Origin: an uncultured Gammaproteobacteria bacterium | GTDB taxonomy: Bacteria; Patescibacteriota; Microgenomatia; UBA10105; UBA927 | Direction of reading: 5' to 3' | Length of the DNA: 64,000 nucleotides | Assembly: GCA_964397755.1 (NCBI GenBank) | Contig: CAYNJY010000004.1 | Span: forward strand, 1,117 to 65,116 | Shown: one piece after another, positions 3,898-44,738 of the stretch | Numbering within the stretch: the stretch's first letter is position 1 | How the letters are laid out: each line of letters opens with the position of its first letter | The notes under the pieces: model-generated | The model's database searches: none | Told to the model about the DNA's origin: nothing | What the model saw: only the letters and a program-made list of their open reading frames with translations | Program-made: the position numbers and the translations under genes

Positions 3898-4017
3898 CTA
3901 ACGTTTGGTTGATTCAACAATTCCTTTATTGTGTTCACCTACCCTTCGTTTCAAATCGTCAGAGTGTCCAATATAGAGATTACGATTTTTCAACAACAAA
4001 ATATACACGTAATGCAT
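3898..4017 (-). CDS. GIY-YIG nuclease family protein, truncated or frameshifted
   Basis: Internal Met begins MHYVYILLLKNRNLYIGHSDDLKRRVGEHNKG, a GIY-YIG motif as in the YhbQ/UPF0213 family. The frame stops after about 39 aa. The next frame continues in GIY-YIG-like sequence (QLIHYEGYLYKDDALRREKYLK...) down to the tRNA-Ser. Confidence 0.4.
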   Translation of the reverse strand: MHYVYILLLKNRNLYIGHSDDLKRRVGEHNKGIVESTKR

Positions 4018-4188
4018 AGAATTCAGTACGGGACGAACCCGTGCCGCCCCGAGTTCATCTCGGGGCGAACTCGCGCGTGCCTTGCGGCACATCTCTTCTC
4101 CAAAGAGACGCAATGGGCCAACTATGCGATCCCACCACTCGTTTGGATTATACCATTCTCGCTCGTCTTTCCGTGCTATACTGTGCTC

Positions 4189-5097: not shown

Positions 5098-5102
5098 AGG
5101 CT

Positions 5103-5675: not shown

Positions 5676-5718
5676 ACTAAGGCGTTTACGCAGAAAGTTT
5701 TCGCAGAAAATTATTCTG

Positions 5719-5790
5719 CGCCTCTGACCAGAATCGAACTGGTATCACCGGCTTCGGAGGCCAGTACTCTATCCGTTAAGCTACAGAGGC
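5719..5790 (-). tRNA. tRNA-Arg (anticodon CCG)
   Basis: 72-nt cloverleaf. Acceptor GCCTCTG/CAGAGGC, anticodon loop CTCCGAA, T-arm CCAGTTCGATTCTGG. CCA is not encoded. Confidence 0.75.
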
Positions 5791-5930
5791 CTGATTCGGG
5801 CGAGAGGGCCGCGTTCTATCCATTGTCAGCCAGAGGCTGATCCGCCTTCGGCGGAAACTGCAGGAGCTGGGTAACGTTGTCTTGTATTATAGCTCCTACC
5901 TCCTACTCTCTGCTACACGTTGCCTTATCA

Positions 5931-6347
5931 TTATTGAATCTTCACTAGATCTCCGTCTAAAACAACAGGCTGCATGGCGTGCATTTCCGTCTTGTAGTCC
6001 GTGTCCGGCACCGGGTGGATGAGGAAAATCTTTTTCCCTAGCCAGAACGCGAGCCCCATCTCAAGGAACGTATTGCCGCCGATATAGCCTTCGGTGCCCT
6101 TTTTGTCGTAGTTAAGGACCAGAATTGCGTCTGATTTTTCAATTTTCCGAAAGTGCTCCCGGATGAAGTCGTACTCAATTTTGGCGGTGATGCGCTCTTC
6201 ATCGGTAGTGGGGTGGACGAAGCCTTGTGTGTCTATGAGCTCTAAGCTCTTTGGCACAAGGACTGTGAATCCTCTTGCTTCAAGCACTTTTTGCGCCTCT
6301 CGCATTTTTTCCTGAAACTGCATACTGCCGCAGATGGTGATAGTCAT
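5931..6347 (-). CDS. nucleoside 2-deoxyribosyltransferase-like protein (Rcl/DNPH1-like fold)
   Basis: 138 aa. The pattern ICGSMQF...AILVLNYDKKGTEGYIGGNTFLEMGLAFWLGKKIFLI fits the deoxyribosyltransferase-like Rossmann family. It sits next to an HD nucleotidase, consistent with nucleotide salvage. Confidence 0.5.
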   Translation of the reverse strand: MTITICGSMQFQEKMREAQKVLEARGFTVLVPKSLELIDTQGFVHPTTDEERITAKIEYDFIREHFRKIEKSDAILVLNYDKKGTEGYIGGNTFLEMGLAFWLGKKIFLIHPVPDTDYKTEMHAMQPVVLDGDLVKIQ

Positions 6348-6413
6348 AGGTTAAAAATACAGGTTTCAACCGACTATTTTGTGCTTCTTCAAAAAAGCCT
6401 GCCCTGCACTAGG

Positions 6414-6500
6414 CGGAAGGAGCGAGATTTGAACTCGCGTGGGCCTTGCGACCCCCAAGGTTTTCGAGACCTGGCCGTTTAACCACTCCGGCATCCTTCC
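6414..6500 (-). tRNA. tRNA-Ser (anticodon CGA)
   Basis: 87-nt tRNA with long variable arm. The anticodon loop CTCGAAA is identical to E. coli serU. T-arm GCGAGTTCAAATCTCGC. Confidence 0.75.
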
Positions 6501-28025: not shown

Positions 28026-29570
28026 ATGAAAAAACACTTTGTTCGTCTTAGTGCGTTCCTCCTCACGCTTCTTGTTGCGATCGGTCTCCTTTCTCGTCCG
28101 ACAATTGTTCGTGCCCAAGGCGCTCCTCCTAATTCTATTCAGAGCTGGTTTTCTCACACGGCGGCTAGCTTTATTCAAGATCTAGAAGCTGCACGCGCCG
28201 GCGGCATTGTGAAAGAAGCTGCAGACAGTTCAAGCATCATTAATCCGCAGCTTGTCCTTGCGTGCGAAATTCTCGGGTGCACCAATGATCTCACGCACCC
28301 GTTTGGGTACCAGCGGAGTCTCCTTGCGTTCGTCGACCGAACGGTTATTGCGATGTACGCAACACCGGTTGCGAGCACCCAGCTTTTCCTCGTTGACCTT
28401 GGAAAAAGCATCGGTCTCCTCCACCCGGCATACGCGCAGGGCGTCGGGTTCTCCGGACTTGAGCCGCTCCTTCCTATATGGAAGGCGTTTCGCAATATCG
28501 CTTACATCCTCCTTGCCATCATCCTCATCGCAGTCGGCTTCATGGTGATGCTGCGGAAGAAGATCGATCCGAAAACGGTGGTCACGGTACAAAATTCCCT
28601 TCCGCGCATCGTCGTTGCCCTTATTCTCATCACCTTCTCCTACGCAATCGTCGGACTCATGATTGACCTCATGTACCTCTCCATGCTGTTTCTCATCACG
28701 ATACTGGTCAACGCAAGCGGCGGGCTTCTCGGGAGTGATACTGCGGCAAAATACCTCGGCGGAGGATTCTGGAGTGCAGTTGGCGCGCTCTTTTCCGGAG
28801 GTATCCGCGCATTTGATGACTTTATCGCGCTTATTCCGAAGGGTGTGAGCGCAACAATTACGATTGTCCCTGGACTTCTCGCTGGCCTCTTTAGCGGAGG
28901 AAAACTGAGCGGCTTCATCACTGGCCTTGCTGCAGCACCCGCACTTTTTTTGCTTCTCATCGCCCTCGTCGTTCTCTTTGGCATAGTGCGGCTCCTGTTC
29001 ATGCTCATCGACGCCTACATCCATATCATTATCGCGCTTTTGACTGCGCCTATTCAACTTCTGTTTGATGCGATCCCGGGGGTCAACGCCTTTGGCGCGT
29101 GGTTCCGAAACCTCCTCTCCCGTCTCATCGTATTCCCGGTGACTGCCGCCATGCTCCTCATCGGCACGATTCTCACGCGCTATGAAAAAAATCCTGTCGG
29201 TATCCCTGGATTCGGGTCACAAAGCCCGGCGCTCTGGGGTCCGCCGTTTCTGACGAGCGATTCCGGCGTCCACGGCATGGCCGGGTTCATCGGCCTTGGC
29301 ATCCTCCTTTCGATCCCGATGATTGTCGCTGGGATTCAAAAAACACTCAAGGGCGAATCGATTATTCCCGGAGGCCCCGGCGCCATCTTCGGCCCAGCCG
29401 GTGCAGCATTCGGACAGCTTCTTCAGGTCGGCTACTATGGAACATTTATTACAAGCGCCTTCCGTCACAAGCAAGCAGAGAAGTCAGCCTACCAGCAGGT
29501 GCGCGAGGGAGCATCAAAAGGCATTGGGGTGCTCACAGGCGGCGGTGGAACGGGCGGTGGCGGACACTAA
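28026..29570 (+). CDS. VirB6/TrbL-like polytopic T4SS membrane protein
   Basis: 514 aa. Signal peptide, a roughly 130 aa N-terminal extracytoplasmic segment, then 7 or more TM helices with Gly-rich loops and a Gly-rich C-terminus. It is immediately downstream of the pilin array. Confidence 0.5.
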   Translation: MKKHFVRLSAFLLTLLVAIGLLSRPTIVRAQGAPPNSIQSWFSHTAASFIQDLEAARAGGIVKEAADSSSIINPQLVLACEILGCTNDLTHPFGYQRSLLAFVDRTVIAMYATPVASTQLFLVDLGKSIGLLHPAYAQGVGFSGLEPLLPIWKAFRNIAYILLAIILIAVGFMVMLRKKIDPKTVVTVQNSLPRIVVALILITFSYAIVGLMIDLMYLSMLFLITILVNASGGLLGSDTAAKYLGGGFWSAVGALFSGGIRAFDDFIALIPKGVSATITIVPGLLAGLFSGGKLSGFITGLAAAPALFLLLIALVVLFGIVRLLFMLIDAYIHIIIALLTAPIQLLFDAIPGVNAFGAWFRNLLSRLIVFPVTAAMLLIGTILTRYEKNPVGIPGFGSQSPALWGPPFLTSDSGVHGMAGFIGLGILLSIPMIVAGIQKTLKGESIIPGGPGAIFGPAGAAFGQLLQVGYYGTFITSAFRHKQAEKSAYQQVREGASKGIGVLTGGGGTGGGGH

Positions 29571-29583
29571 CACCATATTGACG

Positions 29584-32500
29584 TTAATGGCCGCCCTTTT
29601 TCTCTTCTTCTGCAATCGCTTTTTCCGCAGCCACCGCAATCGTCGCAGCCACAAGGACCCACCAATATTTGCGTGCCATTGCAAGCATTCGCCAGTTGAG
29701 CGTGGTTTTGAATTCCTTCCGCAGGTCATGGGCAAGCTCAGGTTTATCCGTGAACAACCCCATGTCCTCCATGGTATTGATGACCTCTTGAATCTTAAAC
29801 TCGTCCCACGCATTACCTTCAGAACCGGTGTAGCGGACTGAATACGAAATCGCCTGAGCGATCGAGTGCGGCCAGTGAGAGACCCGTTTTTCGGCGATGT
29901 TGTGCCACCTGCCATTGGTTAGTTTATTGAGAAGTTTATTGTCCTTCCAGTCCCGAGCATCAATTTCGTGGGCGTGCTTCATAAGCGTAGAAAGCCCGGG
30001 GACCCAACCAACGCTCCGCAGTGACCGGTGGCGGTTGAACTCGATGAACACCCGCGCGAGCTCCTTCATGACCGGTTCAGAAACTGGCGTGCCTACGTAG
30101 TTATTGATCGCGGCGCGAATTTTATAGAAGTGCTTAATCGTCTCTACCGGATCATTCGGCGACATAAGACTCGCTTCTGACATAAAGGCGAGGATCCCAT
30201 CCCTCGTCTCCATTTGATTGCCGATATCGCGAATCCTGCGGTGCATCGCAATCGAACCAAGTTGGAAAAAGTTTACGTCTTTCCAGTTAAAATCTGTTAG
30301 AGACAATGTGAGGGGCAATGCTTCGTTCGCGATCGCTTCGAGTATTGATTTATACTGGATGCCTTCGATCTTCGTATCTCTTCTTTTTGTAAGCTCTTCC
30401 TGCATGTCAACGAGTACGCCGCGGAGTGCCTCAAACCTTCCTTCAGGAACGCCTCTTGTTCGTAAAAATGGCACGATAACTGCGTCGAAATCTTCCTTTT
30501 TTGCAAGATCCATCTTCGCGAGGCTAAACCTCTTATCATCGTACAGCTTCACCTCGGCAAGTGAAAGAGCGCCTTGAAACGACCCCCATTCTTCCTTTGT
30601 AATTCCTCGTTTTTCAAGAATCCTACCCGTATCGTCGCGAAGAAGAGAGAGGAACTTCGATGGATTCCGGCGCATCATGCGCTCGAGAATACCCATCCTT
30701 CTGCCAGGACTTTTTTCTACTAGAAACTGAATGCTAAGCGCCTGATTTTCAAGCTGGGCTCCGTCGGGAAGTTTCTGCATCTCGAGGACTTTATTCCGAA
30801 CTTGCTCTGCCGCGCCTTTGTCTATCCTCCAGGCGCTCCCGTCCATTTGGCCGCCGCCTGAGAGGAATCCCGGTCCCAGAAGTTCGGTGAAGGAGATGCC
30901 GGTATTTTGCTCGGCAAACTCCATAACCTCCATGGCATAGCGCACCTCGGGATGCTTCTCTGTTTTGAATCGCTCCTTCCACTCTTTGGTCTGGGTGACT
31001 TTAAAGCCTCTCGGCGCTTCCTGTTTCTTCGTCATTCTGAGGTTTCTCCGGAGTATTCCGCGGGCGGTTTTGCCCATCTCGCCACCGATATTAAACCTAT
31101 GCGCGAATGCTTCTGGGTTAAAGATCCGAACCAAATCCTCAAACGCCGGCGCGCGCATGACGTCTTTTCCAGACGGCGCCGCAAACTCCGGGTACTCGTA
31201 GCGGGCTGGAGTAGACATGAAGGCGCTGATTGCCGCCATGCGACCGCTTCCGATCATGGCAGTTCGTGCCGCCCAGATAGCCATCCGAACCTTCCATTCT
31301 GGAGGATCCCCGTTTTCTCCCATTACCTCCCCCTTCATTTTACCCTCTGTTTTGAGATACTCGAGCAACCGCTCTCGAACTTCGATATCAATAGGCGACA
31401 GTCCGCGGGTTGCAATGAGTTCCTTGGTGTAACTCTCGTCCAGAGTCGCCTTCCGACGGCTGTAGAGTGTGTAGAGCTTGTTTGCACGCTCGAGCTCCTC
31501 CTGCTCAATCTCAGTAAGCGTCCCTCCTTTGTTGAGTTTTTCCACAAGTGCATCTCTGTATGCTCGTGTTTTTTCAAGAACAAGATACACCTCTGTGTAG
31601 CTGAGGACATCATCGTCCCAGAGGGAAACTCCTTCTGCCGCAAGATCCCGCTTTGCCTCAATCTCAAGCATCATTCTCTGCTCTTCGGTTGTCAGGGTGC
31701 CGTACGTGGTTTCTCCCGGCGTGGCGCCGGGAACTTCCTCTGCGTGTTTCTCTCGTAGAATCTTGAGTAAGTCCTCGCGGCTTATACGCCTCTTTTCATA
31801 GAGGGCTTTATTGGGGTTTTCTATAGCCTTTTTCCCGACTTTTTTCTCCGGTGGAGCTTTGCCGAAGAGCGGATTGTCTACCTCCTCCTTCAAAAATCGT
31901 ATAGCCTCTTGGTACTTGCCTTGCCTTTCGGCAAGCGTTTCGGCAACCACGTGTTCGTAGAGGCTCGCCGCGTAGTTTGAAAATTCGTAGTTTTTATAGA
32001 GGTGGTCAAGATCAGCTCCCGTGAGGAGCGCCATTGCTTTGAGCCGGTCCTTGACGTCGCCGGGGTTGTAGAGAAGCCCTTTGACTGCGTATTCGTAGGT
32101 ACCGCGACCATCCCAGTGCTTCTGGTAGAGCTCGTTGACTAGGTTGTACTCTGCGCCGTACTTCCACCGCAGGTACCGCTTAAACTCTTCAAACTTCTGC
32201 ATCTGTGGCAGGTCCGGGTGCGATTGCTCCTTTCCCAACCGGTAAATTTCGTCAATGAAGTTAAAGTACCAATCTGCCTCTCCGTCCGACCCGTTTCGTA
32301 TGTTTCTCACCTCATCCTCACCGAAATAATCTGAAAAAATATAATCTTCTTTTCCGATTCTCTCTGCCCGTTCGCGTTCAGCCTTCGGCGCTTGGCTGGC
32401 AATGTCGTCCCATCGGACGACGCGCTCCCCGAAGCGCTGTTTCCGACTACTTTCAAGCTGTGTCACGGAAGCATGCGCAGAAATTTCTTGGAGTATCTTG

Positions 32501-33237
32501 AGGCGCTTTCCTATTTCTTCCCGTACTATTGGGTCCTCGAACTGCTTCGCGCCGAGCTCCCGGATGCTTTGGATGTAGTGTTCAAGCTCTTTGGGATTCT
32601 GCGCTGCCTGCGCATCAAGGGTAAGCTCGCGTTTAATCTGCTGTATGCGGCCTCCGACCTCTGTGTCTTTCAATGGATCGATCTTATCGGCATACAGATT
32701 GTCAATCAGACCATCAAGACGGACTATGGGGGTGTCTAAAATTTCGTGGAATTCTGCTCTCAGCGTCGGCTGGTGTTCTGTGATTCTACGCAGGTACCGC
32801 GCAGCTTCCCTCCCTGCGGGGCTATGAATTTTTTCGTCTTCAATAATTGCCTTGAGTTTCTCCCCGACGCGGCGTAGGTACGCGGGGTCTACAAGGCGTG
32901 CCTCGTCAGCAGAAGCCATCTCTTCAACTGCCTCAAAAACGCGGAGGTTCCTTGGCTTCTCGCCGCCTAAAATTTTTCTCGCTGCTTCTGACGAACTTTC
33001 TGCAAGTTTCTTTGTAAGTTCCTCAAGTCTATCCGCAGGGATGTCGTGTTTCTCGGTTTTTCTCTTTGGCTTCTTGGCTTCCTCTTCTCCCCCCGGAGGT
33101 TTCTCGGGCTCTTTGGGTACTTCTGCCCCGGGCACCGCGGCATCTGCCGGCGGCTTCTCCGACGGAGGACCTCCAGCTCCGCCCCCAGCTTTTCCTCCCA
33201 GTGCACCCGGTCCTTTGAGTACTTCTTCACCAGCCAT
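29584..33237 (-). CDS. very large hypothetical protein (about 1217 aa) with disordered Gly/Pro/Glu/Lys-rich N-terminus and C-terminal TM anchor
   Basis: Start assigned to MAGEEVLKGPGALGGKAGGG. The body is predicted largely alpha-helical with no recognisable catalytic motif. The C-terminus is ...RKYWWVLVAATIAVAAEKAIAEEEKKGGH. It is convergent with the VirB6-like gene. Confidence 0.55.
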   Translation of the reverse strand: MAGEEVLKGPGALGGKAGGGAGGPPSEKPPADAAVPGAEVPKEPEKPPGGEEEAKKPKRKTEKHDIPADRLEELTKKLAESSSEAARKILGGEKPRNLRVFEAVEEMASADEARLVDPAYLRRVGEKLKAIIEDEKIHSPAGREAARYLRRITEHQPTLRAEFHEILDTPIVRLDGLIDNLYADKIDPLKDTEVGGRIQQIKRELTLDAQAAQNPKELEHYIQSIRELGAKQFEDPIVREEIGKRLKILQEISAHASVTQLESSRKQRFGERVVRWDDIASQAPKAERERAERIGKEDYIFSDYFGEDEVRNIRNGSDGEADWYFNFIDEIYRLGKEQSHPDLPQMQKFEEFKRYLRWKYGAEYNLVNELYQKHWDGRGTYEYAVKGLLYNPGDVKDRLKAMALLTGADLDHLYKNYEFSNYAASLYEHVVAETLAERQGKYQEAIRFLKEEVDNPLFGKAPPEKKVGKKAIENPNKALYEKRRISREDLLKILREKHAEEVPGATPGETTYGTLTTEEQRMMLEIEAKRDLAAEGVSLWDDDVLSYTEVYLVLEKTRAYRDALVEKLNKGGTLTEIEQEELERANKLYTLYSRRKATLDESYTKELIATRGLSPIDIEVRERLLEYLKTEGKMKGEVMGENGDPPEWKVRMAIWAARTAMIGSGRMAAISAFMSTPARYEYPEFAAPSGKDVMRAPAFEDLVRIFNPEAFAHRFNIGGEMGKTARGILRRNLRMTKKQEAPRGFKVTQTKEWKERFKTEKHPEVRYAMEVMEFAEQNTGISFTELLGPGFLSGGGQMDGSAWRIDKGAAEQVRNKVLEMQKLPDGAQLENQALSIQFLVEKSPGRRMGILERMMRRNPSKFLSLLRDDTGRILEKRGITKEEWGSFQGALSLAEVKLYDDKRFSLAKMDLAKKEDFDAVIVPFLRTRGVPEGRFEALRGVLVDMQEELTKRRDTKIEGIQYKSILEAIANEALPLTLSLTDFNWKDVNFFQLGSIAMHRRIRDIGNQMETRDGILAFMSEASLMSPNDPVETIKHFYKIRAAINNYVGTPVSEPVMKELARVFIEFNRHRSLRSVGWVPGLSTLMKHAHEIDARDWKDNKLLNKLTNGRWHNIAEKRVSHWPHSIAQAISYSVRYTGSEGNAWDEFKIQEVINTMEDMGLFTDKPELAHDLRKEFKTTLNWRMLAMARKYWWVLVAATIAVAAEKAIAEEEKKGGH

Positions 33238-33353
33238 AGAAAAATCGCGCCACTGTGACGCTCTCCTGACTATTCTACTGCCACGAAATGCCGGGCGCAA
33301 GCACAGAATACTAGTTGTCGTCAGCCTGTATTACATCACTTTAGAATCCCCGC

Positions 33354-34148: not shown

Positions 34149-34706
34149 TTACGTGTAGAGTCCGTGTTTCTCGATATACGCCGCTACGTCTTTCGGCACG
34201 AACTGGTCGACGGAAAATCCCCTAGCAACGCGCTCGCGGATCTTTGTGGAGGAGATGTCGGTTGTCATAAGAAGCTCGTGGGTGAGAAGCGTCATGTTGG
34301 GGTACAGGGGCTTATTGGGATAGCCCTGCCGCGGAAACACAACGAAGGGAAGCTTCTTAACAAGCTCCTCCCAGTGGCCCCACTCATGAAATCGCGGCAG
34401 CCAGTCGCTCCCGATGACGAATCGGTATTCGTGTTCTTTCGGCAGATACGGAAGAAGGCTGATGGTACTCCCGTCAAGTTTGTGATCTATCTCGATCGTC
34501 GAGACGCGCGCGCGCGGAAGCGAAAGGAGCCTGACCATTGCTCGGCGATGGGAAGTCTCCGCGACTCCTGGTTTCGGCGGGTTCTGGCCGTAGCTTGGGA
34601 GAAACCACAGTTCGTCAGCGTCAGAGAAATCGAGAACTTGCCGTGCGATGAGGACGTGGCCCAGGTGCGGTGGGTTAAAGACCCCCCCAAAAAGAGCTAG
34701 TTTCAT
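34149..34706 (-). CDS. nadD: nicotinate-nucleotide adenylyltransferase
   Basis: 185 aa with GGVFNPPHLGHVLIA (the HxGH motif) and a C-terminal ISSTKIR motif. Confidence 0.85.
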   Translation of the reverse strand: MKLALFGGVFNPPHLGHVLIARQVLDFSDADELWFLPSYGQNPPKPGVAETSHRRAMVRLLSLPRARVSTIEIDHKLDGSTISLLPYLPKEHEYRFVIGSDWLPRFHEWGHWEELVKKLPFVVFPRQGYPNKPLYPNMTLLTHELLMTTDISSTKIRERVARGFSVDQFVPKDVAAYIEKHGLYT

Positions 34707-34775
34707 ACGTTGCCTATTATAATTCGTGAAAAGAAAAATTGGTAGTTTTCACGATTCTGATGCGCTTTTTTATAC

Positions 34776-34804
34776 TTGATGCCAGCGGTATAACCTTCTA
34801 CAAT
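34776..34804 (+). promoter_or_regulatory. sigma-70 promoter upstream of the T4SS-like operon
   Basis: TTGATG, a 17-nt spacer, TACAAT, about 40 nt upstream of ATG 34844. Confidence 0.4.
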
Positions 34805-34843
34805 ACTTTCTGCGGCTCTCAGTGTATACTTTGCTATCAACGA

Positions 34844-35950
34844 ATGATGAACACGCGACCTATGGAGCAACACCCAGTACCACAAAATGTCACAACGTTC
34901 CAGTTTCGCCTTGTTGGCGACATGACCATCAAGCAGTTTGGGTATCTTGCCGCCGGGGCGATCCTCGCATTCGTAAGTTACAAGTTGCCGCTTCCTTTAT
35001 TCTTTACGTGGCCGCTGACGAGCTTCTTTACCTTTTTAGGCATTGGATTTGCCTTTGTCCCGATCGAAGAGCGACCGATGGACGTCTGGGTTTTTTCATT
35101 TCTCCGAAGTGTCTACAGTCCCACGCAGTACGTGTGGCAACCGCGGCCGGTAGCCCACGTACAGGAACCTCCGAAACCTCCGAACGGTAACGGCCGTAAA
35201 CAGGCCTATCCTTCCCCTGTGTCAAAAGAAGCCTCACTGATGTCAAAGCTTTTTGATGCCTTTGGCATGCCCGCGCGTAAGCCCGAAACTTCCCCACGCG
35301 TTCTGCCGACCCAACAAAAACAGGAGGTCCCCTCGCCTGCCGAGCTTGCGGCTCTTGCCGGTCGCATATCCCAGCTTCAGCATGAGGTTGAAACAAAACA
35401 TAAAACAGAAGATCGGCTCCTTGAGCTTCAATCGCAGCTCACCGCTCTGCTTGCCGACAAGAAGCGGCTTGAGGACAGACTCATGTCTCTCGGGCACGCG
35501 CAAAGCGCACAAACATCACCGTTATCAAAACCAGCCCCTACCTTACCGGTAAACACTCCGGGTGCGACAGTCAAGGTTATTGGTCCGGCACAAGCGCCGC
35601 GTATTGGCATACCAAAACTTACAACTGTGCCAAACGTGCCTTCTGGCATCATCAAAGACAATCAGGGGAACTTTCTCCCCGGAGTCATTGTGACAATTCG
35701 GGATGCGGAGGGGATTCCTCTTCGGGCGCTCAAGACGAATAAACTCGGACAGTTTGCAGCATCCACTCCACTCACCAACGGAACCTACACTGTAGAGGTT
35801 GAGGATCCGCGCGCTCGCTATGTCTTTGACCGCGCGCAGATACCGCTCTCTGGCGCGGTCGTGCCCGCGCTTGAAATAACAGCAATAAGCCAGAAAGAAA
35901 TTTCCCGGCAAAAACTTGCACAGCAAATATTCGGCGACCAAAACATATAG
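34844..35950 (+). CDS. T4SS-associated membrane protein (two-TM N-domain, Pro-rich linker, coiled coil, C-terminal beta-rich domain)
   Basis: Start at ATG 34844. FQFRLVGDMTIKQFGYLAAGAILAFV plus a second TM helix, then a coiled coil (LQHEVETKHKTEDRLLELQSQLTALLADKKRLEDRL), then about 130 aa C-terminal. It is directly upstream of VirB4, the position of VirB3/VirB8-like components. Confidence 0.45.
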   Translation: MMNTRPMEQHPVPQNVTTFQFRLVGDMTIKQFGYLAAGAILAFVSYKLPLPLFFTWPLTSFFTFLGIGFAFVPIEERPMDVWVFSFLRSVYSPTQYVWQPRPVAHVQEPPKPPNGNGRKQAYPSPVSKEASLMSKLFDAFGMPARKPETSPRVLPTQQKQEVPSPAELAALAGRISQLQHEVETKHKTEDRLLELQSQLTALLADKKRLEDRLMSLGHAQSAQTSPLSKPAPTLPVNTPGATVKVIGPAQAPRIGIPKLTTVPNVPSGIIKDNQGNFLPGVIVTIRDAEGIPLRALKTNKLGQFAASTPLTNGTYTVEVEDPRARYVFDRAQIPLSGAVVPALEITAISQKEISRQKLAQQIFGDQNI

Positions 35951-35953: not shown

Positions 35954-36643
35954 ATGACAGACCCAGTCGCTCCCATAAAAGATTCTACGCAAATGTTTAC
36001 AGAAATTGAGGACGTGAAAGACGGCGTCATCCTTTTCATAGATGGTTCAGCTGCAATGATTGTGTCTGTCTCTGCGGTAAACTTTGGCCTGCTCTCAGAG
36101 AGAGAGCAGGACGCGATTATCTATGCATACGCCGGGTTTCTAAATTCCCTCTCGTTCCCAATCCAGATCCTTGTTCGCACCCAGCAGAAAGACGTCACGG
36201 CATACCTTCGCTCCCTTGAGGAGCAACAAGAACGGCAGAAAAATCCGAAGCTTGTGGGGAGTATCAAGGCGTACCGCGCTTTCATCGCAACAACCGTGAA
36301 GGAAAAAGACGTGCTTGATAAAAAATTCTACATCGTGATTCCTTTTTCTAACCTTGAACTCGGCGCTGCGCCGTCACTTCTCTTTGGCACGACGAAGAAA
36401 CGCGGCCTTCCCTACCCGAAACCGTATATCTGGGAAAAGGCAAAAACGGCTCTCTCTCCCAAGAGAGACCACGTCATTCGGATTCTCGCGCGCGTCGGGC
36501 TTCGCTCGACGGCTATGACGGACGAGCTCATCGTCCGACTCTTTTTTGGCATATACAACCCAGGGAGCCCAGCACCCGTCCTTCCTTTAGATACCATCCA
36601 GCCGCACAAGCTCGTGTCGGGCGCACCGACTATGCTGCCGTAG
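35954..36643 (+). CDS. VirB4-like ATPase, N-terminal segment separated by an in-frame TAG
   Basis: 229 aa. It is in the same frame as the downstream ATPase ORF, interrupted only by TAG 36641-36643 followed by 5 sense codons. Confidence 0.5.
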   Translation: MTDPVAPIKDSTQMFTEIEDVKDGVILFIDGSAAMIVSVSAVNFGLLSEREQDAIIYAYAGFLNSLSFPIQILVRTQQKDVTAYLRSLEEQQERQKNPKLVGSIKAYRAFIATTVKEKDVLDKKFYIVIPFSNLELGAAPSLLFGTTKKRGLPYPKPYIWEKAKTALSPKRDHVIRILARVGLRSTAMTDELIVRLFFGIYNPGSPAPVLPLDTIQPHKLVSGAPTMLP

Positions 36644-36658
36644 AAGAACGCCCTGCCT

Positions 36659-38557
36659 ATGAACCTTTCGTCAATGATTCAACAATTTCTCCGGCCCCCT
36701 GCCGCCGATCCTACGATACAAACGCCGCCCGGGCGACTCATGACACCGACTGATATTGTTGCACCGCCAGCAATTGAGGTGGACTTCGATCACCTTAAAA
36801 TCGGCGAGTGGCACTATCGAACCCTCTTTGTGGCGGGGTATCCTCGATTTGTCAGCTCAAATTGGCTTGAACCACTCATCTCCTTTGGTCATACGCTCGA
36901 TATTTCAATGTTTATCTACCCTGCTCGCTCAGGGGAAATCCTCGACAACCTCAAGCGGAAAGTCGGCGAGATGGAAGCGACAATTCAGTCTGATCTCAAA
37001 CGCGGCAAAACCATAGAACCGTCGGTTCAAATTGCACTCGAGGACGCCCTCACACTGCAACAGGACCTCGCCAAAGGAGCGCAGCGCTTCTTTCAATTCG
37101 GCCTCTACATTACCATCCCAGCAAAAACAAAAGAAGATCTCGACAAGACAACGAAGCAGATAGAGGCTACTCTCGGATCCCTCCTTGTCGTAAGCAAGAA
37201 AGCGACGCTACAAATGGAAGAAGGCTTCAAAACGACGCTTCCGATTGGAAAAGACCGGCTCCTCGTGACGCGGAATATGGATACGACCTCCCTTGCGGCC
37301 ACCTTCCCTTTCACGACCTCAGAGCTCTCCGCCAACGAGGGCATCCTTTACGGCATTAACACCGGCAACGACAGCCTCATTGTGTTTGACCGCTTCTCTT
37401 TGGAAAACGCCAACGCGGTCGTCTTCGGCAAATCGGGCTCGGGAAAATCGTACCTGATCAAGCTGGAAATTATGCGCAGCCTCATGTTTGATACCGACGT
37501 CATTGTGATCGACCCTGAAAATGAGTATGAAGCGCTGACCTACGCCCTTGGCGGCGAGTATGTTCGCTTTCATTTCGGGGCGGCCACAAAAATCAACCCG
37601 TTTGATCTCGCCATTCTGACAGGAAAAACGCGAGACGACGAAAACGAGCTCAACCAAAAAATACTCTCTCTCCACGGCTTCTTTCGCGTTGTCATGGGCG
37701 CGCTTACCCCGACAGAGGACGCTCTCCTCGATCGCGCACTCGTGCTTTCATATAAACAGAAAGGGATGACCCCTGATCCTACGACGCAAAAGGCTGAGCC
37801 GCCCCTCATGGAAGATCTCTACAAGGTGCTCGTCGGCATGGAAGATCCCGTCGCACGATCTCTCGCAGACCGGATCGAAAAGTTTGTCAAAGGAAGCTTG
37901 GTTGGCATTTTTGACGAGCAGACAAACATAGAGATACGAAATCAGCTCACTGTTTTCTCTATTCGGGATCTTGAAAATGAGCTCCGCCCCATTGCGATGC
38001 ACCTAATACTCGATTTTATATCGAACAAAATTCGGCGTGACACCAAAACGCGGCTCCTTGTCGTTGACGAGGCGTGGTACCTCATGAAATTTCCAGACTC
38101 TGCACAGTTTCTGAACTCAATCGCAAAGCGAGCGAGAAAATATTTCCTGGGCCTGACAACCATTACACAGGATGTCGAGGATTTTCTCGCGGTCGATCTT
38201 GGAAAAACGATTATTCAAAACAGCAGTCTTCAAATTCTCCTCAAACAGTCGCCTGCGGCAATCGACACGGTCGCAAATCTTTTCTACCTGTCAGAGGGAG
38301 AGAAAAGGCTCCTCTTGTCTGCGGGCGTCGGCCAGGGCCTCTTTTTTGCCGGTCCAGCCCACGCATCGATGCGCGTCGTTGCAAGCCCGGAGGAACACGC
38401 GCTGGCTACCACCCATCCGAAAGACATCTATGAGAATGCGGGGCCGGGAGGAAGGGATATCCCCCATCTCCCAGAGCAACGCCCAGGCGTATCTACCAAT
38501 CGGCCGGTATTCACTGTTGAGCCAGTGCAGAAAGAGACCCCCTCGTCCGATGTGTAA
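36659..38557 (+). CDS. VirB4/TrbE-like T4SS ATPase (C-terminal segment with Walker motifs)
   Basis: Walker A VVFGKSGSGKSY, Walker B RLLVVDEAWYLM. Together with the upstream segment the length is about 860 aa, typical for VirB4. Confidence 0.75.
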   Translation: MNLSSMIQQFLRPPAADPTIQTPPGRLMTPTDIVAPPAIEVDFDHLKIGEWHYRTLFVAGYPRFVSSNWLEPLISFGHTLDISMFIYPARSGEILDNLKRKVGEMEATIQSDLKRGKTIEPSVQIALEDALTLQQDLAKGAQRFFQFGLYITIPAKTKEDLDKTTKQIEATLGSLLVVSKKATLQMEEGFKTTLPIGKDRLLVTRNMDTTSLAATFPFTTSELSANEGILYGINTGNDSLIVFDRFSLENANAVVFGKSGSGKSYLIKLEIMRSLMFDTDVIVIDPENEYEALTYALGGEYVRFHFGAATKINPFDLAILTGKTRDDENELNQKILSLHGFFRVVMGALTPTEDALLDRALVLSYKQKGMTPDPTTQKAEPPLMEDLYKVLVGMEDPVARSLADRIEKFVKGSLVGIFDEQTNIEIRNQLTVFSIRDLENELRPIAMHLILDFISNKIRRDTKTRLLVVDEAWYLMKFPDSAQFLNSIAKRARKYFLGLTTITQDVEDFLAVDLGKTIIQNSSLQILLKQSPAAIDTVANLFYLSEGEKRLLLSAGVGQGLFFAGPAHASMRVVASPEEHALATTHPKDIYENAGPGGRDIPHLPEQRPGVSTNRPVFTVEPVQKETPSSDV

Positions 38558-38576: not shown

Positions 38577-40805
38577 ATGGAAGCGGAATCACTGCTCCTT
38601 CTTGATTTTCTTGAACGCATAGTCCAAGAGCTAGCGAAGGAGAAGGGCGTCCCGGTAAGCGCAGCCCGGGCATATATCGAGAGCCAACAGTACCCGTTTC
38701 TCCGTCAGTTTCTGTCCGCGAGAAAGGAGGGGCTGATCCAGTCATTTCTCGCGGGGGACCGCGCGTTTACCAATGCGCTTCTTCGGCTTCTCCGCGAGGC
38801 GCGCATGAGCGTCCGTGAGCAACTAACGGCATTCCAAAAAGAAAAACCAGATACGCCACTTTCACCCCAAGAGGTCGTCCAGAGGGCCCTCTACTGGCAG
38901 GAGGCTCAGAAAACTATCGCCCACGCGCAAGAAAACTACCTTCTCGCTGCGCGCGGAAAGCGTAGGCAGCGCGTTCACGATCTTATAGCCCGATGGGTGT
39001 CCGAACAAAAAAACGAAACCCTCTCATCTTCCCTCCCCGACCTTATTCGTCAAGCAGACAGCGCGCTCGGGAAGCAGAATCAATACGGCGATGTTCTCTA
39101 CACGGTAAGCTCGCTCCTTCGCGCGCGTAAAGAAACGCAACCGTTCTTTGAGAAAAATCCAGATCTTTTAAGAGATATCGCCCTCCGGGTTCCTCCGCCT
39201 CGTGAAGAAACCCAGCTTGCCAAATCAGCCTCTATGCTTCAGCTGTCTCTTGGTGCGGCTCTTGTTTCCTCTCCGCTCCTCACCAGGGCGGATTACCTTG
39301 CCGGGCTTCTAGTCCAAGGCGTCGACGTCAGTCGGACTCTCTCCATTGTGAGAGTTCTCGAAGCGCTCGACTCTCCGTTACCGCTTGATGAGCTCCTCTC
39401 CTGCGGCCGCGTGTTTCGGTCTCTCTCAAAAAGCCCAATCCAGAAAACCTTTGCGCCACTTGCTGATTCTGTTTTCCTCCGACTGCCGAGAGGGACCAGG
39501 CGCGCTATCCTCGAGAAGGTGGTTGGTCGGTCGCTTGAACACGCGCTCGATTACCTTCAGCGATCGCTCGGCGCTGCCATTATCAACACCCCGGCATACC
39601 AGTCGCTTCTTGTCACACAAAACACTCTCTTGGGCGGCCCTCCTCTCTCGCTTGCCCTGTCCGGATTCTCCAAGTTTACGGGTGACATTTTTACGACAAT
39701 CTTTCGTGGACCAAACGAGGCTGCCATTCTGTATTTTGAGGCGTCTCGAAGATCTATCGGTCAAGGAAGTCCGCTGGGCCTCTCGCCTCTTCTCTCCGGC
39801 TCCCTTGCACTCTCTTTCCCAACCCTCTATAAAACGTACTTCGATCCTGTATCTGGTCGGTGGGCAGTCGGAACGCAATCGTCTCTTCGGAGGATCGCTG
39901 CTTTTGGCTCGGGCGCAGCTTCGCGCGCAGGGCGTGGCTTGTTCGGTTTCGCATCCCGCATCCTCGGCACAGGGCTCCTTGCGATCGGCGCACTCCTCCA
40001 AGCTGGGTTTGGCGGTCTCATTAGCGCTCTCTCCGGGGGCAAAGTCTCACTCTCTCTTCGTCAAGCCATTCACGGAATTTTTCCTCCAACAAAGCTTACA
40101 GATGACCTTCCGAAGCTTATCTCGGTATCAACGACGATCGCCATAGTCCTTCTTTTTGTCCTCCCGACATTTTTTAACCCCTCGTTTACTTCCTGGCTCA
40201 GCAAAACGAGCGCACTCCTGGTGAGTCTTGCGAGCCCAGAGGCACAGGGGGGGCCAGTCCCAAAATACCCCCAGGCACCCTGTGTTCCAACGAGCCAGGG
40301 ATTGTGCAGGTGGCCAACCGCTGGATGCATCTCTCAGGGACCATACAGCCCGTGGCCAGGATCCCATAGAGGAGGAGCTGCCAACGCGATCGACATCTCG
40401 GCCTCAAGCGGAACGACGGTCACCTCAACAATACAAGGGCGCGTCGAGGCGGTCTATGCTCGGTGTTTTGATAACTCAGGATACCGAGGGAACACCTGTG
40501 GCGGCGGCTACGGCAACTATGTTGTCGTCATATCGAGCGATGGAACTATCCGACTCCTCTACGGTCACCTCTCGCGCCGAGGACTCCCGAGGCCCGGTGC
40601 GCTCGTCTCTCTCGGAGCCCCCCTTGGAAACGTTGATCAAACTGGCAATTCGAGCGGGCCACACCTTCACTACCAACTCGACAGCGCACAACACATAAAC
40701 AGCAGGCTCCCGTTCCCGGTTCCCTCTTGTATCGGAAAGGCCCTTTGTGATGCAGCCATCCGTCTCCAATCGAAAGGAAAATACACATGCAACGTAAAAC
40801 CATAG
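38577..40805 (+). CDS. transmembrane M23-family peptidoglycan endopeptidase with large N-terminal cytoplasmic domain
   Basis: 742 aa. About 480 aa N-terminal domain of unknown function, two TM helices, then an M23 domain (GSHRGGAANAIDIS ... GNSSGPHLHYQLD). Confidence 0.7.
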   Translation: MEAESLLLLDFLERIVQELAKEKGVPVSAARAYIESQQYPFLRQFLSARKEGLIQSFLAGDRAFTNALLRLLREARMSVREQLTAFQKEKPDTPLSPQEVVQRALYWQEAQKTIAHAQENYLLAARGKRRQRVHDLIARWVSEQKNETLSSSLPDLIRQADSALGKQNQYGDVLYTVSSLLRARKETQPFFEKNPDLLRDIALRVPPPREETQLAKSASMLQLSLGAALVSSPLLTRADYLAGLLVQGVDVSRTLSIVRVLEALDSPLPLDELLSCGRVFRSLSKSPIQKTFAPLADSVFLRLPRGTRRAILEKVVGRSLEHALDYLQRSLGAAIINTPAYQSLLVTQNTLLGGPPLSLALSGFSKFTGDIFTTIFRGPNEAAILYFEASRRSIGQGSPLGLSPLLSGSLALSFPTLYKTYFDPVSGRWAVGTQSSLRRIAAFGSGAASRAGRGLFGFASRILGTGLLAIGALLQAGFGGLISALSGGKVSLSLRQAIHGIFPPTKLTDDLPKLISVSTTIAIVLLFVLPTFFNPSFTSWLSKTSALLVSLASPEAQGGPVPKYPQAPCVPTSQGLCRWPTAGCISQGPYSPWPGSHRGGAANAIDISASSGTTVTSTIQGRVEAVYARCFDNSGYRGNTCGGGYGNYVVVISSDGTIRLLYGHLSRRGLPRPGALVSLGAPLGNVDQTGNSSGPHLHYQLDSAQHINSRLPFPVPSCIGKALCDAAIRLQSKGKYTCNVKP

Positions 40806-41737
40806 TACTATTTCTCTTTCTCATCGTCCTCGTCTCGGCGATTGTCGGTGAGTACCTTTCTCGAAAAACAGTAGGCACGAAGCCGCCATCTCAGGAGGAA
40901 CAACGCTCTCTTCCTCGGCCTGTATCGACGGAAGATTTCGTGCCGACAGCGCCTCGCGACGTTACCTTCTCTCCCCTTCCTCAACCACAACAGCCCCCAC
41001 GGGAATACACGACCTTTCACGCCTCCTTCTCTTATAGTCCTGTCGCGCTTACGGAAAGGCTCGCGTCGGACATGGGCCTTGCGCTAACCCAAGCTCAAGA
41101 CGAGGGGGGCCTCAGATTCAGGCAGTGGGAGTCAACTCCCACCTCTCTCTCGCTCATGATCGATGGTGGAATCGCTTCTCTTTCGCTGCAGAACGAGGCA
41201 ACGGGTGCAGGGGCCACGTCAGTAAGCGTCGAGCAGGCGTTCCAATACTTCCTCGTTCGATTTCTCCCTCCAGTTGCTCACGTGCCCAAGGCACTCATAA
41301 AAAGGGAGGAAACCCCGGAGGGCTTTCTTTTCCTTGCCTACCAGTTTCTTATCCGGGACGCGCCGATGCTTCTTGCCAACTATGATCCCGTGTCGCTCGC
41401 GGTCCAGCTAGACGGGAGCGGAGCCGTGCGATCGCTCTCTCTTGTTTTTCCTCCGGACCAAACGGTAGCACAGGAGCAAAGGCTGTCTCTGACGCCCCAA
41501 GAGATCGAAGGTGGCCTCAACGACAATCGCGGGCTCCTCATCTACTCGCTTGATTCGGAAGATAACCCGTACGGATCAACGCCCGTCTTCAACCATGTCT
41601 CGGTGCGGGGAACGACACTCGCCTACCTCCTTAATCCCGACGCAAAGCTCCTTCTTCCTGTTTACCTCATCGATGGTGTTGGCGAATCTGAAGAAAAATT
41701 ACAAGTCGTCCGCTACCTTATCCGGGCAACACACTAG
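40787..41737 (+). CDS. hypothetical membrane-anchored protein (last gene of the T4SS-like operon)
   Basis: 316 aa. N-terminal TM helix (IVLFLFLIVLVSAIVG), then an extracytoplasmic domain. It overlaps the upstream gene by 19 nt. Confidence 0.45.
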   Translation: MQRKTIVLFLFLIVLVSAIVGEYLSRKTVGTKPPSQEEQRSLPRPVSTEDFVPTAPRDVTFSPLPQPQQPPREYTTFHASFSYSPVALTERLASDMGLALTQAQDEGGLRFRQWESTPTSLSLMIDGGIASLSLQNEATGAGATSVSVEQAFQYFLVRFLPPVAHVPKALIKREETPEGFLFLAYQFLIRDAPMLLANYDPVSLAVQLDGSGAVRSLSLVFPPDQTVAQEQRLSLTPQEIEGGLNDNRGLLIYSLDSEDNPYGSTPVFNHVSVRGTTLAYLLNPDAKLLLPVYLIDGVGESEEKLQVVRYLIRATH

Positions 41738-41851: not shown

Positions 41852-42958
41852 CTATGTTTGGACGCGAACAGGCATGATTATGTGGAGAAAAGAGGCGTCT
41901 TTCACTGGTTTAAAAACACCCGGGTTCAGCGACCCAGTCATCTCAAAAAGAAATTCCTCGTCTGAAAAATTCGCAAGAAAATCAAGAAGAAACCTGCTGT
42001 TAAATGCAATCTCCCCTCCTTCTCCATCAATCTTTGCAGACATCGTCGCGCTCCCCCCTCCAACGAGGGGCGCGTTTGCGCTGACCGTAAGCTTCTGTCC
42101 CTCAAGCGCGAGGCGGACAATGTTTGCGTTGTCGCGGGCAAACACCGAAGCAGACCTGGTTGCCCTTGTAAACGACTCCCTGTCCAAAAGGGCGCGCGTC
42201 GTAAAGCTCTTTGGAATAATTTTTTCGTACTTTGGAAACTCGCCGTCGAGAAGCCTCGTGGTAAGACGTGTGTCCCCTATCGTAAATTCAAGCTGGTTGT
42301 CTTTTGCAAATACGGCGTGGGCTTCTTTTTCTTCTTTCTCTTCCTGAGCAACGCGGATGAGCTCTTGAAGAGCGCGGGCTGGAATCACCATGTCGGGAAT
42401 GGTTTTCGTGGAAACTTCAACCCGTCCGACAGAGAGCCTGTACCCGTCAGTTGCAGCAAGAATAAGGGCGTCTTTTTCCCCGTGCAGCTTGGCACCGGTT
42501 AGTATTGGTCTCCCCTCGTCTGTTGCCGCAGCGAACGCCACTCGTGAAAGCGCTCCCACAAAGACGTCTTTATCGAGCGTGATTTCTGTTCCTCTGCCTG
42601 CCGGGGGAACTGGTGGGAACTCTGTTGCTGGAAGTGTTGGGAAAGCAGCAGTAAACCCTTCGCATTCAAGCCGAAACTCCTCTTTTATCAACGACACGTG
42701 CACGGTTCCGGCTGGAAGAGACGACACAAATTCACTGAGCGTCTTTGCCGGAACACACACGTCCCCTTCTTTTTCTACTTTCGCCCCTATCCACGTAGAT
42801 TCTGTCGTTTCTAGGTTTGTTGCGGTTATGTAAACACCGTCTTTCGTTGCCTGAAGGAGAAAGTTTTGAACGACCGGAAGCTGGGGGCGGGAGGGGATTG
42901 TCCTCCCTGTTCTTGTTATTGCCCGAAGGAAATTTTCTTGTAAGAGAGAGGCTTTCAT
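41852..42958 (-). CDS. dnaN: DNA polymerase III beta sliding clamp
   Basis: 368 aa with three-domain clamp architecture. It is immediately downstream of dnaA. Confidence 0.9.
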   Translation of the reverse strand: MKASLLQENFLRAITRTGRTIPSRPQLPVVQNFLLQATKDGVYITATNLETTESTWIGAKVEKEGDVCVPAKTLSEFVSSLPAGTVHVSLIKEEFRLECEGFTAAFPTLPATEFPPVPPAGRGTEITLDKDVFVGALSRVAFAAATDEGRPILTGAKLHGEKDALILAATDGYRLSVGRVEVSTKTIPDMVIPARALQELIRVAQEEKEEKEAHAVFAKDNQLEFTIGDTRLTTRLLDGEFPKYEKIIPKSFTTRALLDRESFTRATRSASVFARDNANIVRLALEGQKLTVSANAPLVGGGSATMSAKIDGEGGEIAFNSRFLLDFLANFSDEEFLFEMTGSLNPGVFKPVKDASFLHIIMPVRVQT

Positions 42959-43135
42959 GTGTATATACCTAGTTGTAGTAGAAGAGGCCAGCGTGGAGAA
43001 GTGTATTGCTTTTTGTTCCGGGTGTCAACGGCGGAGGTTTTGAGGTTTTTAGAGAGGGGAAAAAGGTGGGTTTTTATGTGGAAAAGGATGTGGATAAAAA
43101 GGAAAAAATTGTGGAAAAGTGGATAACCCCAGTTT
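42959..43135. promoter_or_regulatory. DnaA-box cluster in the dnaA-dnaN intergenic region (origin element)
   Basis: Perfect box TGTGGATAA at 43089-43097, near-perfect GTGGATAAC at 43119-43127, TTATGTCCACA at about 43133-43143. AT-rich flanks. Confidence 0.55.
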
Positions 43136-44503
43136 TTATGTCCACAGCTGTTGTTTTATCCCCTCAACGGCGTTCCTGAGGTTTTCGTTTGTTGCTAATT
43201 CTGCAGTAATTGTTTCAACGCCGTGCATAATGGTCGTGTGGTCTCTCCCCCCGAGAAGCCCCCCGATATCATCGAGGGTCATCCCGAGCTCGGTTTTACA
43301 AAGATACATAAACACCTGTCGCGGCCGGGCAATGGGCCGGTCTCTCTTTGGTCCCTTCATGGTTGTTGTTTTAAGACCAAAAACACTTGCAACGGCGGTT
43401 AAAACCTCGTGGGCATCAACGCGGCGCGCCCTGTTGGCTGGATCACGTACCGCCACCCCTTTTGTGTTGAGCAGGATGGACACAAGGTGCTCGTCAATGT
43501 TTTGGCCTCGCGCCGCTGATTCGGTGCTGAGTCGGCGCAGAAAGCCCTCAATCGCGCGCGTGTCAGTAATGTTTGCTGCGATGAGCCGTGCGGCGCCTGG
43601 GGGGACAGAGAGGCCGAGTGCTTTTGATTTGATGTTAATAATTGCAGCGCGTAGCTCAAAATCCGGGGGGGAAATGTCGGCGGCTAAGCCTCCTTCAAAG
43701 CGAGAGCGCAGGCGATCTTCAAGCTTGCTTATTTCTGACGGCGAGCGATCAGATGTGAGAATAATTTGGCCTCCTTCACGGAGAACAGCGTTAAACGTGT
43801 GAAAAAACTCTTCCTGGGCGGTTTGCTTACCGGCGATGAATTGAACGTCGTCAACCATGAGCAGCCGCGCGCTTCGATATTTCTGTTTAAACAGGCGTGC
43901 AGATTTTGTTTGAATTGCCTCAATAATCTCGTTTAAAAATTCCTCTCCCATACAGTAGACGATCCGGGTAGACTGCCGTTTTTCGAGAAGCGCATTTGCA
44001 ACCGCCTGCATGAGGTGTGTTTTTCCCACACCAACGCCCCCGTAGAGAAACAGCGGGTTGTAAGCGGTACCCGGGCTTTTTGCTACGGCTGTAGCAGCAG
44101 CGTACGCGAGTTGGTTGGTTGTGGAGACGGCAAAATTGTCAAACGTGAGGTTTTCCTGTAAGTGGAGCCGGCGAGCGGCCGAGGATATCTCCTCTTGAGG
44201 AGAGCGGATGGCCGTTTCAAAAAGGGGACCAGGAGGTTTTTGGGAAGCGTCGTCTTTTTTTGGAGAGACGATAAAAAGCAAGCTTGTATTTTGTTTCGTT
44301 CGGGCATCAAGAAGGGTCTTAACGAGGCCGTAGTAGCGAGTTTCAACAAGCGTTCGCATGAGAGGGCTTGTACAACCAATGGTCGCCACACGAGACGCAA
44401 GCGAGATAAGTCTTGTGTGGGCAAAGTGGGTTTGATAGGTGGGTTTGGTTACCGACAGCTCAATTTCTGCCAAAACCGCTTTCCATAATTGGTGCAGGTC
44501 CAT
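43136..44503 (-). CDS. dnaA: chromosomal replication initiator protein
   Basis: Start at ATG 44503 (MDLHQLWKAVL...). AAA+ Walker A GGVGVGKTHL, a C-terminal DNA-binding domain and the DnaA signature. Confidence 0.9.
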   Translation of the reverse strand: MDLHQLWKAVLAEIELSVTKPTYQTHFAHTRLISLASRVATIGCTSPLMRTLVETRYYGLVKTLLDARTKQNTSLLFIVSPKKDDASQKPPGPLFETAIRSPQEEISSAARRLHLQENLTFDNFAVSTTNQLAYAAATAVAKSPGTAYNPLFLYGGVGVGKTHLMQAVANALLEKRQSTRIVYCMGEEFLNEIIEAIQTKSARLFKQKYRSARLLMVDDVQFIAGKQTAQEEFFHTFNAVLREGGQIILTSDRSPSEISKLEDRLRSRFEGGLAADISPPDFELRAAIINIKSKALGLSVPPGAARLIAANITDTRAIEGFLRRLSTESAARGQNIDEHLVSILLNTKGVAVRDPANRARRVDAHEVLTAVASVFGLKTTTMKGPKRDRPIARPRQVFMYLCKTELGMTLDDIGGLLGGRDHTTIMHGVETITAELATNENLRNAVEGIKQQLWT

Positions 44504-44738
44504 AGGTAAACTAGTAAGGCAGGGAGTTGGGGTGGGGATAAACCGTCCACATAGTAGATAAGATATCCACACCTGTCAAGGGGCGACCGACCAGCAGGAG
44601 ATACTTCATCACCCCCATATACATCTTTTTCATATGGCTTCTTTTTGGCGTGTTTGCTGTTGTCCATAATTGTATTGGCCTATTTTATCCTTGTCAGTTT
44701 TGATACGGCTTGAGAAGGGAGTATAGTCCCCCCGCTCT
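44504..44738. promoter_or_regulatory. candidate oriC segment upstream of dnaA (DnaA boxes plus AT-rich stretch)
   Basis: ATATCCACA at about 44563-44571, the reverse complement of GGGGATAAA, TTGTCCATA, and an AT-rich segment ttttcatatggcttctttttgg. Confidence 0.5.

Follow-up and report, generated by a model that had tools for sequence, protein, structure and literature searches.

The gene pair and its surroundings

The stretch of DNA analyzed here, hereafter the window, is 64,000 nucleotides long and contains a small gene cluster with a VirB4-type T4SS ATPase. The features of the cluster and of its 3' border are as follows:

34739..35950, + strand: PrgI/VirB3-like membrane protein with a CarboxypepD_reg-like domain, 403 aa (Pfam PrgI, E 5.7e-6; CarboxypepD_reg, E 1.3e-5)
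35954..36643, + strand: ORF1, stand-alone TrsD/TraC-like protein, 229 aa, ATG start, TAG stop at 36641-36643
36644..36658, no strand: intergenic spacer AAGAACGCCCTGCCT, 15 nt, keeping the frame of both genes
36659..38557, + strand: ORF2, VirB4-type T4SS ATPase, 632 aa, ATG start, TAA stop
38577..40805, + strand: M23 peptidase-domain protein, 742 aa (Pfam Peptidase_M23, E 6.4e-15)
40787..41737, + strand: 316-aa protein with N-terminal hydrophobic residues 1-19, overlapping the end of the M23 gene
41852-42958, - strand: dnaN (Pfam DNA_pol3_beta domains)
43136-44572, - strand: dnaA (Pfam Bac_DnaA)

The TAG-ended ORF1 and the downstream ORF2 lie in a common frame, both start coordinates being equal to 2 modulo 3 in the sequence and in the ORF list. 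The initial annotation had described them as two ORFs of one frame separated by the TAG and the five codons K N A L P, and the sequence, the ORF list and the translation all confirm this description. The spacer reads AAG AAC GCC CTG CCT, and the otherwise uninterrupted translation across ORF1, spacer and ORF2 contains a single '*'. The remark that TAG is a genuine terminator elsewhere in the window was also correct: this codon ends 23 of the 66 crude non-overlapping ORFs, the others ending with TAA (25) or TGA (18). None of the six tRNAs of the 64-kb window has a CUA anticodon, and the data give no indication of a recoding signal for the TAG at 36641-36643.

The PrgI-like gene, whose product has two hydrophobic segments, is the first of the conserved cluster and is found directly 5' of the ORF1 homolog in the related loci L001, L003, L004 and L086. 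The M23 gene occupies the same position 3' of VirB4 in L003, L004 and L086, and its product is probably the cell-wall hydrolase of the system with a VirB1-like role. The 316-aa protein has no Pfam or NCBIfam match. Its gene has a counterpart downstream in L086 and is a possible member of the cluster. Some 100 nt separate the dnaN and dnaA genes from the last gene of the cluster, which places the cluster near the replication origin, as is frequent for Patescibacteria T4SS. Because these two genes adjoin it, the cluster is chromosomal and borders on the replication origin region. Genes resembling nadE and nadD are found upstream of the cluster. A separate observation is a 514-aa protein encoded at 28026-29570, which has about ten predicted transmembrane segments and no Pfam match.

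The junction in related species

We took 80 loci from a genome collection, one per species, and determined for each of them where ORF1 stops and in which frame the ORF2 homolog lies. The two frames coincide (offset 0) in 8 loci and are shifted by +1 in 30 and by +2 in 42, so that the homologs are out of frame in 72 of the 80 species, and they form two ORFs in 79. The initial annotation had read the locus as one VirB4 gene interrupted by a TAG. It had suggested checking close relatives for the same split, and had named orthologs that are separate genes as the finding that would speak against its reading. That is essentially what these loci contain, and the interrupted-gene reading is thus not supported.

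The ORF1 homologs end with TAA in 48 loci, with TGA in 24 and with TAG in 7. Among the junctions, an ATGA in which stop and start overlap is the most frequent (19 of 80 loci), and further junctions are often small overlaps or spacers of 2-11 nt. L001, which holds the closest non-identical match to ORF1 (72% protein identity), has an offset of +1. A single in-frame stop with a spacer of one or two codons is present in L006, L014, L039 and L061, and the stops of the in-frame species are TAA as well as TAG. In all loci that have both genes on the contig, the ORF1-like gene is adjacent to virB4, frequently with a stop/start overlap. The order PrgI-like, ORF1-like, VirB4 and M23 peptidase recurs across the 80 species representatives. 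The neighborhoods of three homologs likewise consist of a PrgI-like gene, an ORF1-like gene of 218-222 aa, a VirB4 gene of 600-757 aa and then a large protein, often with an M23 peptidase domain.

Neighboring genes on the same strand are expected to share a frame one third of the time. With this prior expectation and with 8 of the 80 other species in frame, the shared frame of ORF1 and ORF2 does not exceed chance and is a coincidence. It is the minority state, reached by chance, of a freely drifting junction.

We also searched a large protein collection with the concatenated ORF1 and ORF2 protein as a read-through query. In such a search a fused ortholog would rank first, its score being the total of those for the two parts. 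None was present in the best 120 matches: in 119 of them (596-662 aa) the ORF2 part alone is covered, which is about 70% of the query, and the remaining one is a protein of 1,227 aa, the precomputed Pfam domains of which include intein and LAGLIDADG families. The sole fused ORF among the 80 species was found in L027 (JBBTTP010000088.1, an 8-kb MAG contig). This 820-aa fusion lacks the ORF1 tail and approximately the first ten ORF2 codons, so that its YNPG motif almost directly abuts the ORF2 N-terminal NPMP. Judging by the missing segment, it seems to have arisen secondarily, by an in-frame deletion that removed the junction. The L027 fusion shows that a single-chain form of VirB4 occurs in this lineage, and it suggests that a fused protein is tolerable.

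This layout bears on the idea that read-through or amber suppression yields a small fraction of covalently fused full-length VirB4 beside the separate proteins. The in-frame arrangement, the leaky-type stop and the five-codon spacer would permit it, the four related loci with a single in-frame stop share these prerequisites in part, and the fusion in L027 suggests that the product would be tolerated. However, in nine species out of ten the two frames differ and cannot yield one continuous read-through polypeptide. Programmed read-through would be recognized by a conserved frame and stop or by a suppressor tRNA, whereas here only 8 of the 80 species are in frame, their stops include TAA, the tRNAs of the window have no CUA anticodon, and the TAG is a frequent terminator with no sign of recoding. 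The initial annotation had listed local read-through as an option; read-through as a conserved trait is contradicted by this variation of frame, and even an occasional fused product at this locus is quite improbable.

ORF1 and ORF2 as parts of VirB4

The search for ORF1 homologs in the large protein collection returned 2,479 matches, which make up a large family of proteins encoded on their own, about 205-230 aa in length. The best 120 of these 2,479 matches are all 203-232 aa long, and the named ones belong to Gottesmanbacteria or Patescibacteria. In an alignment of 25 homologs the first Met is conserved, 66 columns are invariant, and the conserved core extends until a YNPG.P.P motif at about residue 208. 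It is followed by a non-conserved tail of 3-27 residues, and the TAG of the window lies inside this tail. Such a position is typical of a genuine protein end rather than of a stop that cuts into a conserved domain, and the ortholog alignment proposed in the initial annotation gives a negative answer as to a conserved residue at this position. A public gene call of the identical protein (P0001) starts at Met14 of ORF1, and the aligned N-termini lead us to favor the upstream Met at 35954 over this shorter call.

The family assignment of ORF1 relies on several weak signals. ORF1 matches the TrsD/TraD family NF041427 (NCBIfam) with an E-value of 7.6e-5 and 22.6 bits, far under the 200-bit cut-off, residues 27-129 being aligned to profile positions 30-142 of 201. 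The layout is that of TrsD/TraD genes, as the 229-aa ORF1 lies 15 nt 5' of ORF2 and its homologs are similarly placed in relatives. With this score, ORF1 is a distant relative of TrsD/TraD by remote homology, outside the curated NF041427 family. ORF1 also weakly matches the N-terminal profile positions of VirB4_plasma (126-235 of 894) and of conju_CD1110 (11-123 of 752, E 0.019). A local Pfam search found no family for ORF1 at E-values up to 10. When it was extended to the 25 aligned homologs, 9 of them had weak matches to TraC_F_IV (best E 0.0041), which gives no usable family. The precomputed annotation of P0001, that is of ORF1 from Met14, and of an identical gene in L086 does contain PF26593, 'TraC-like'.

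A profile of the ORF1 family gave insignificant matches to PDB sequences, e.g. DciF with an E-value of 0.09. The AlphaFold2 model of ORF1 calculated from the 25-sequence alignment has a pLDDT of 75 and a pTM of 0.66. In a Foldseek search of the PDB with this model, the top 11 matches were R388 T4SS TrwK/VirB4 chains, with E-values of 0.03-0.14 and a probability of up to 0.97. These signals are individually weak but agree with each other, and they identify ORF1 as a remote homolog of the N-terminal part of VirB4.

The second ORF is easier to place. ORF2 has a P-loop domain of the VirB4/TraG type with Walker A (GKSGSGKS) and Walker B motifs, and it matches Pfam P-loop_TraG (E 2.7e-24), AAA_10 (E 1.1e-15) and, weakly, CagE_TrbE_VirB. 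Its match to the C-terminal domain of VirB4 in PDB 4ag5 has an E-value of 2.8e-45. With 391.5 bits (E 7.3e-117) it passes the cut-off of 325 for the NCBIfam family NF045971 (conju_CD1110), and it spans positions 185-730 of the 752 in this profile, which is less than the whole profile. In VirB4_plasma it spans positions 297-875. ORF1 and ORF2 match consecutive positions in the same profiles and thus tile a single-chain VirB4 in order, ORF2 being without the first 180-190 residues or so. Based on these profile matches, the CD1110 family is represented here by two polypeptides. Residues 251-556 of ORF2 align to residues 445-740 of TrwK, which means that TrwK extends about 194 residues further at its N-terminus, a length close to that of the ORF1 core.

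In an alignment of 40 ortholog N-termini, the Met at 36659 falls into the column that contains the start Met of many orthologs. Past this Met, the orthologs have in common a short hydrophobic segment, an NPMP-type motif and the strongly conserved DIIAPPAIEVDFD block. A public call of the identical protein (P0121) starts at Met28 of ORF2, and we favor the upstream Met at 36659 over it in view of this alignment.

The statement in the initial annotation that both parts carry VirB4 N-domain-like sequence holds only loosely, insofar as they correspond to different, consecutive parts of the N-terminal half of VirB4. It does not hold in the sense of mutual similarity. We also considered ORF1 as a duplicate of the N-terminal domain of ORF2. 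An hhalign comparison of the ORF1 family with residues 1-245 of the ORF2 family gave a probability of 0.4%, and this candidate was rejected. The absence of similarity to the N-terminal region of ORF2 shows ORF1 to be the missing N-terminal module and not a duplicate. Among the options of the initial annotation, a functional two-piece VirB4 is the one supported, because ORF1 accounts for the N-terminal and ORF2 for the remaining positions of the fused profiles.

That ORF1 might be an unrelated neighbor gene with no functional link to VirB4 is very improbable in light of this ordered tiling of the profiles. It is further contradicted by the adjacency to virB4, often with overlapping stop and start codons, wherever both genes are found on a contig, by TrwK/VirB4 taking all 11 top places in the Foldseek search, by the fit of the TrwK length arithmetic and by the natural fusion in L027.

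According to another reading, an ancestral single-chain VirB4 of about 860 aa recently gained the TAG and was left as two fragments, i.e. a pseudogene. The two ORFs, in frame and one stop and five codons apart, have the appearance expected of such an event, and L027 does encode an 820-aa fused form. However, apart from L027 all relatives examined in their genomic context have two ORFs, mostly out of frame, including L001 with the closest non-identical ORF1 match, and no fused ortholog is present in the best 120 matches of the read-through query. Conservation is strong in both ORFs and neither of them shows decay. The stop is located in the variable tail rather than in a conserved column, and ORF2 starts at an orthologous Met. 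A recent nonsense mutation is therefore extremely improbable.

The window comes from a metagenome-type assembly, and a 71-kb NCBI contig is the recorded source of the identical proteins, so that a sequencing or assembly error could be thought to have made a false stop. The exact 229-aa ORF1 is, however, encoded on two Logan contigs, from runs ERR3478686 and ERR4904391, which have 8 and 1 mismatches to the window (99.89% and 99.91% identity), respectively, all of them outside the junction. Over the 61 nt of the junction, TAG and spacer included, both contigs agree with the window in every base. As two independent assemblies have the same TAG junction and the two-gene layout is the norm of the family, an assembly error is unlikely as the source of the TAG, to the point of having next to no probability.

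A TrsD and VirB4 pair of the Patescibacteria type

Hence, the most likely explanation, and one that we hold with high confidence, is that ORF1 and ORF2 are two separate, intact and co-transcribed genes of a chromosomal T4SS of Patescibacteria (Gottesmanbacteria-like, as judged from the nearest relatives in Gottesmanbacteria/Microgenomates), that the TAG is the ordinary stop of ORF1, and that the shared frame is coincidental. ORF1 encodes a TrsD/TraC-like protein matching the first 190-200 residues or so of single-chain VirB4, and ORF2 encodes the rest, namely the second N-terminal subdomain and the P-loop ATPase. The data demonstrate that the genes are separate, that this is conserved and that the pair is homologous to single-chain VirB4, and the mechanism is inferred from them. 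The ribosome would stop at the TAG at 36641-36643 and initiate ORF2 15 nt downstream. Translation of ORF2 is probably coupled to the termination of ORF1, because stop and start often overlap in relatives and no clear Shine-Dalgarno sequence precedes position 36659. The two polypeptides presumably associate non-covalently, with ORF1 as the N-terminal module. The equivalent part of VirB4 is in contact with VirB3 in the R388 structures, and the counterpart contacted by the ORF1 module would be the PrgI-like protein encoded just upstream.

Single-chain VirB4 proteins such as TrwK of R388, the CD1110 and Mbov_0397 families and TraC of F are covered by ORF1 and ORF2 in profile order, and the predicted structure of ORF1 most resembles TrwK. 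The difference is that about 190 N-terminal residues reside on a separate polypeptide here, with a fusion in only one of the 80 related species (L027). In the staphylococcal and enterococcal plasmids pGO1, pSK41 and pIP501, TrsD/TraD is encoded 5' of the VirB4 homolog TrsE/TraE. Like ORF1, it is a small protein of its own that is encoded beside virB4 and remotely resembles the N-terminus of VirB4. However, these systems are plasmid-borne whereas the one described here is chromosomal, and the score of ORF1 is far under the cut-off of their family.

The window has what is expected of a Patescibacteria T4SS, i.e. a VirB4 gene with an adjoining TrsD homolog and a PrgI/VirB3 homolog, in a synteny retained in relatives. 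Of all T4SS components in Patescibacteria, TrsD was found to be the most abundant, with 2,272 homologs, 1,664 of them associated with VirB4 (Quinonero-Coronel et al. 2025, PMC12102498). These T4SS are often located near the origin of replication (PMC12102498), and the Patescibacteria T4SS is reported to be essential for epibiotic growth. The TrsD homolog that adjoins VirB4 in Ca. S. epibionticum is listed among the essential genes in PMC12102498, with reference to Wang et al. 2023, and the peptidase and lysozyme homologs 3' of virB4 in S. epibionticum are essential as well (PMC12102498). The TrsD and VirB4 pair of these systems (PMC12102498; Wang et al. 2023 for S. epibionticum) consists, as here, of a TrsD-like gene of about 220 aa directly 5' of a VirB4 gene of about 630 aa. 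The PrgI/VirB3-like gene upstream, the peptidase downstream, the chromosomal location by dnaA/dnaN and the closest homologs in Gottesmanbacteria/Patescibacteria complete the likeness. There is no essential difference from the published pair, the shared frame and the 15-nt spacer being particular to the window, and the arrangement is the already known Patescibacteria TrsD and VirB4 arrangement. Compared with the T4SS loci of relatives, several of which have a VirD4-like coupling protein gene just 5' of the PrgI-like gene, no such protein was found in the 64-kb window.

The value of the locus is mainly that of a negative result, and the role of the separate N-terminal module in Patescibacteria T4SS gains nothing new from it. 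Where a whole lineage has the split, an in-frame stop between adjacent ORFs that together resemble one protein is not evidence that the gene is a pseudogene, is misassembled or is recoded. The appropriate annotation of ORF1 is TrsD/TraC-like VirB4 N-terminal-domain protein.

Start sites of ORF1 and ORF2

The public database proteins identical to the two window ORFs are both called from internal methionines: P0001, the ORF1 counterpart, at position 35993 (216 aa) and P0121, the ORF2 counterpart, at position 36740 (605 aa). Alignments of orthologs favour as starts the methionines further upstream, at 35954 and 36659, which give proteins of 229 and 632 aa. In the related locus L017 (2427-2490), the conserved N-terminal peptide of ORF2 (…SAFKKFVNPMP) is encoded in frame immediately past the ORF1 TAA codon. 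As there is no ATG, GTG or TTG ahead of the methionine of NPMP, ORF2 of this locus starts at either this internal methionine or a non-canonical codon.

Fused and intein-bearing homologues

Only one of the 80 species compared carries ORF1 and ORF2 as a single reading frame, 820 aa in length:

L027 (JBBTTP010000088.1, Patescibacteria isolate H52-bin037_1, 8-kb contig), 4001-6463: fused ORF1-ORF2

The fused ORF lacks the tail of ORF1 and roughly the first 10 codons of ORF2, both deleted in frame, and the joined sequence reads …YNPGATYGLLNPMPED…. This could be a genuine, secondary re-fusion, or it could stem from faulty assembly of the 8-kb contig.

One VirB4 homologue among the best 120 matches to the concatenated read-through query, P0240, is 1,227 aa long, almost twice the usual length. 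Intein_splicing (PF14890) and LAGLIDADG_3 (PF14528) are among the Pfam domains precomputed for this protein, so that it appears to be a Patescibacteria VirB4 that contains an intein.

Gene neighbourhood of the cluster

The PrgI/VirB3-like protein encoded directly upstream of ORF1 (34739-35950) has 403 aa and is much larger than a classical VirB3. It has a C-terminal CarboxypepD_reg / SdrD-B-like Ig-fold domain, and this architecture also occurs in relatives. Several relatives encode, between the CTP_transf_like and PrgI-like genes, a VirD4-like coupling protein of about 730 aa with DUF8128, DUF87 and TrwB_AAD_bind domains:

L001, 333-2543, opposite strand
L003, 46-2253, opposite strand
L004, 315-2489, opposite strand

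In the window, the CTP_transf_like gene directly adjoins the PrgI-like gene (region 34149-34739) with no gene in between, and tblastn with the L001 protein found no homologue across the 64 kb.

Further genes of the window:

28026-29570, plus strand: 514-aa ORF with about 10 predicted hydrophobic segments
29584-33300, minus strand: 1,238-aa ORF, adjoining the former
41852-44572, minus strand: dnaN and dnaA, immediately downstream of the cluster

Neither of the first two had a match in the Pfam search; the 514-aa ORF could encode a putative VirB6-like or other membrane component. Given the position of dnaN and dnaA, the window covers the replication-origin region of the chromosome.

Taxonomic labels of the records

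The title ‘uncultured Gammaproteobacteria bacterium’ stands on many of the MAG records with this Patescibacteria-type locus (L007, L009, L012, L014 and many others). Of L066 and L076, one bears the label Pseudomonadales and the other ‘Candidatus Bathyarchaeia archaeon’. Such non-Patescibacteria titles probably reflect placeholder names, errors of taxonomy or mis-binned contigs.
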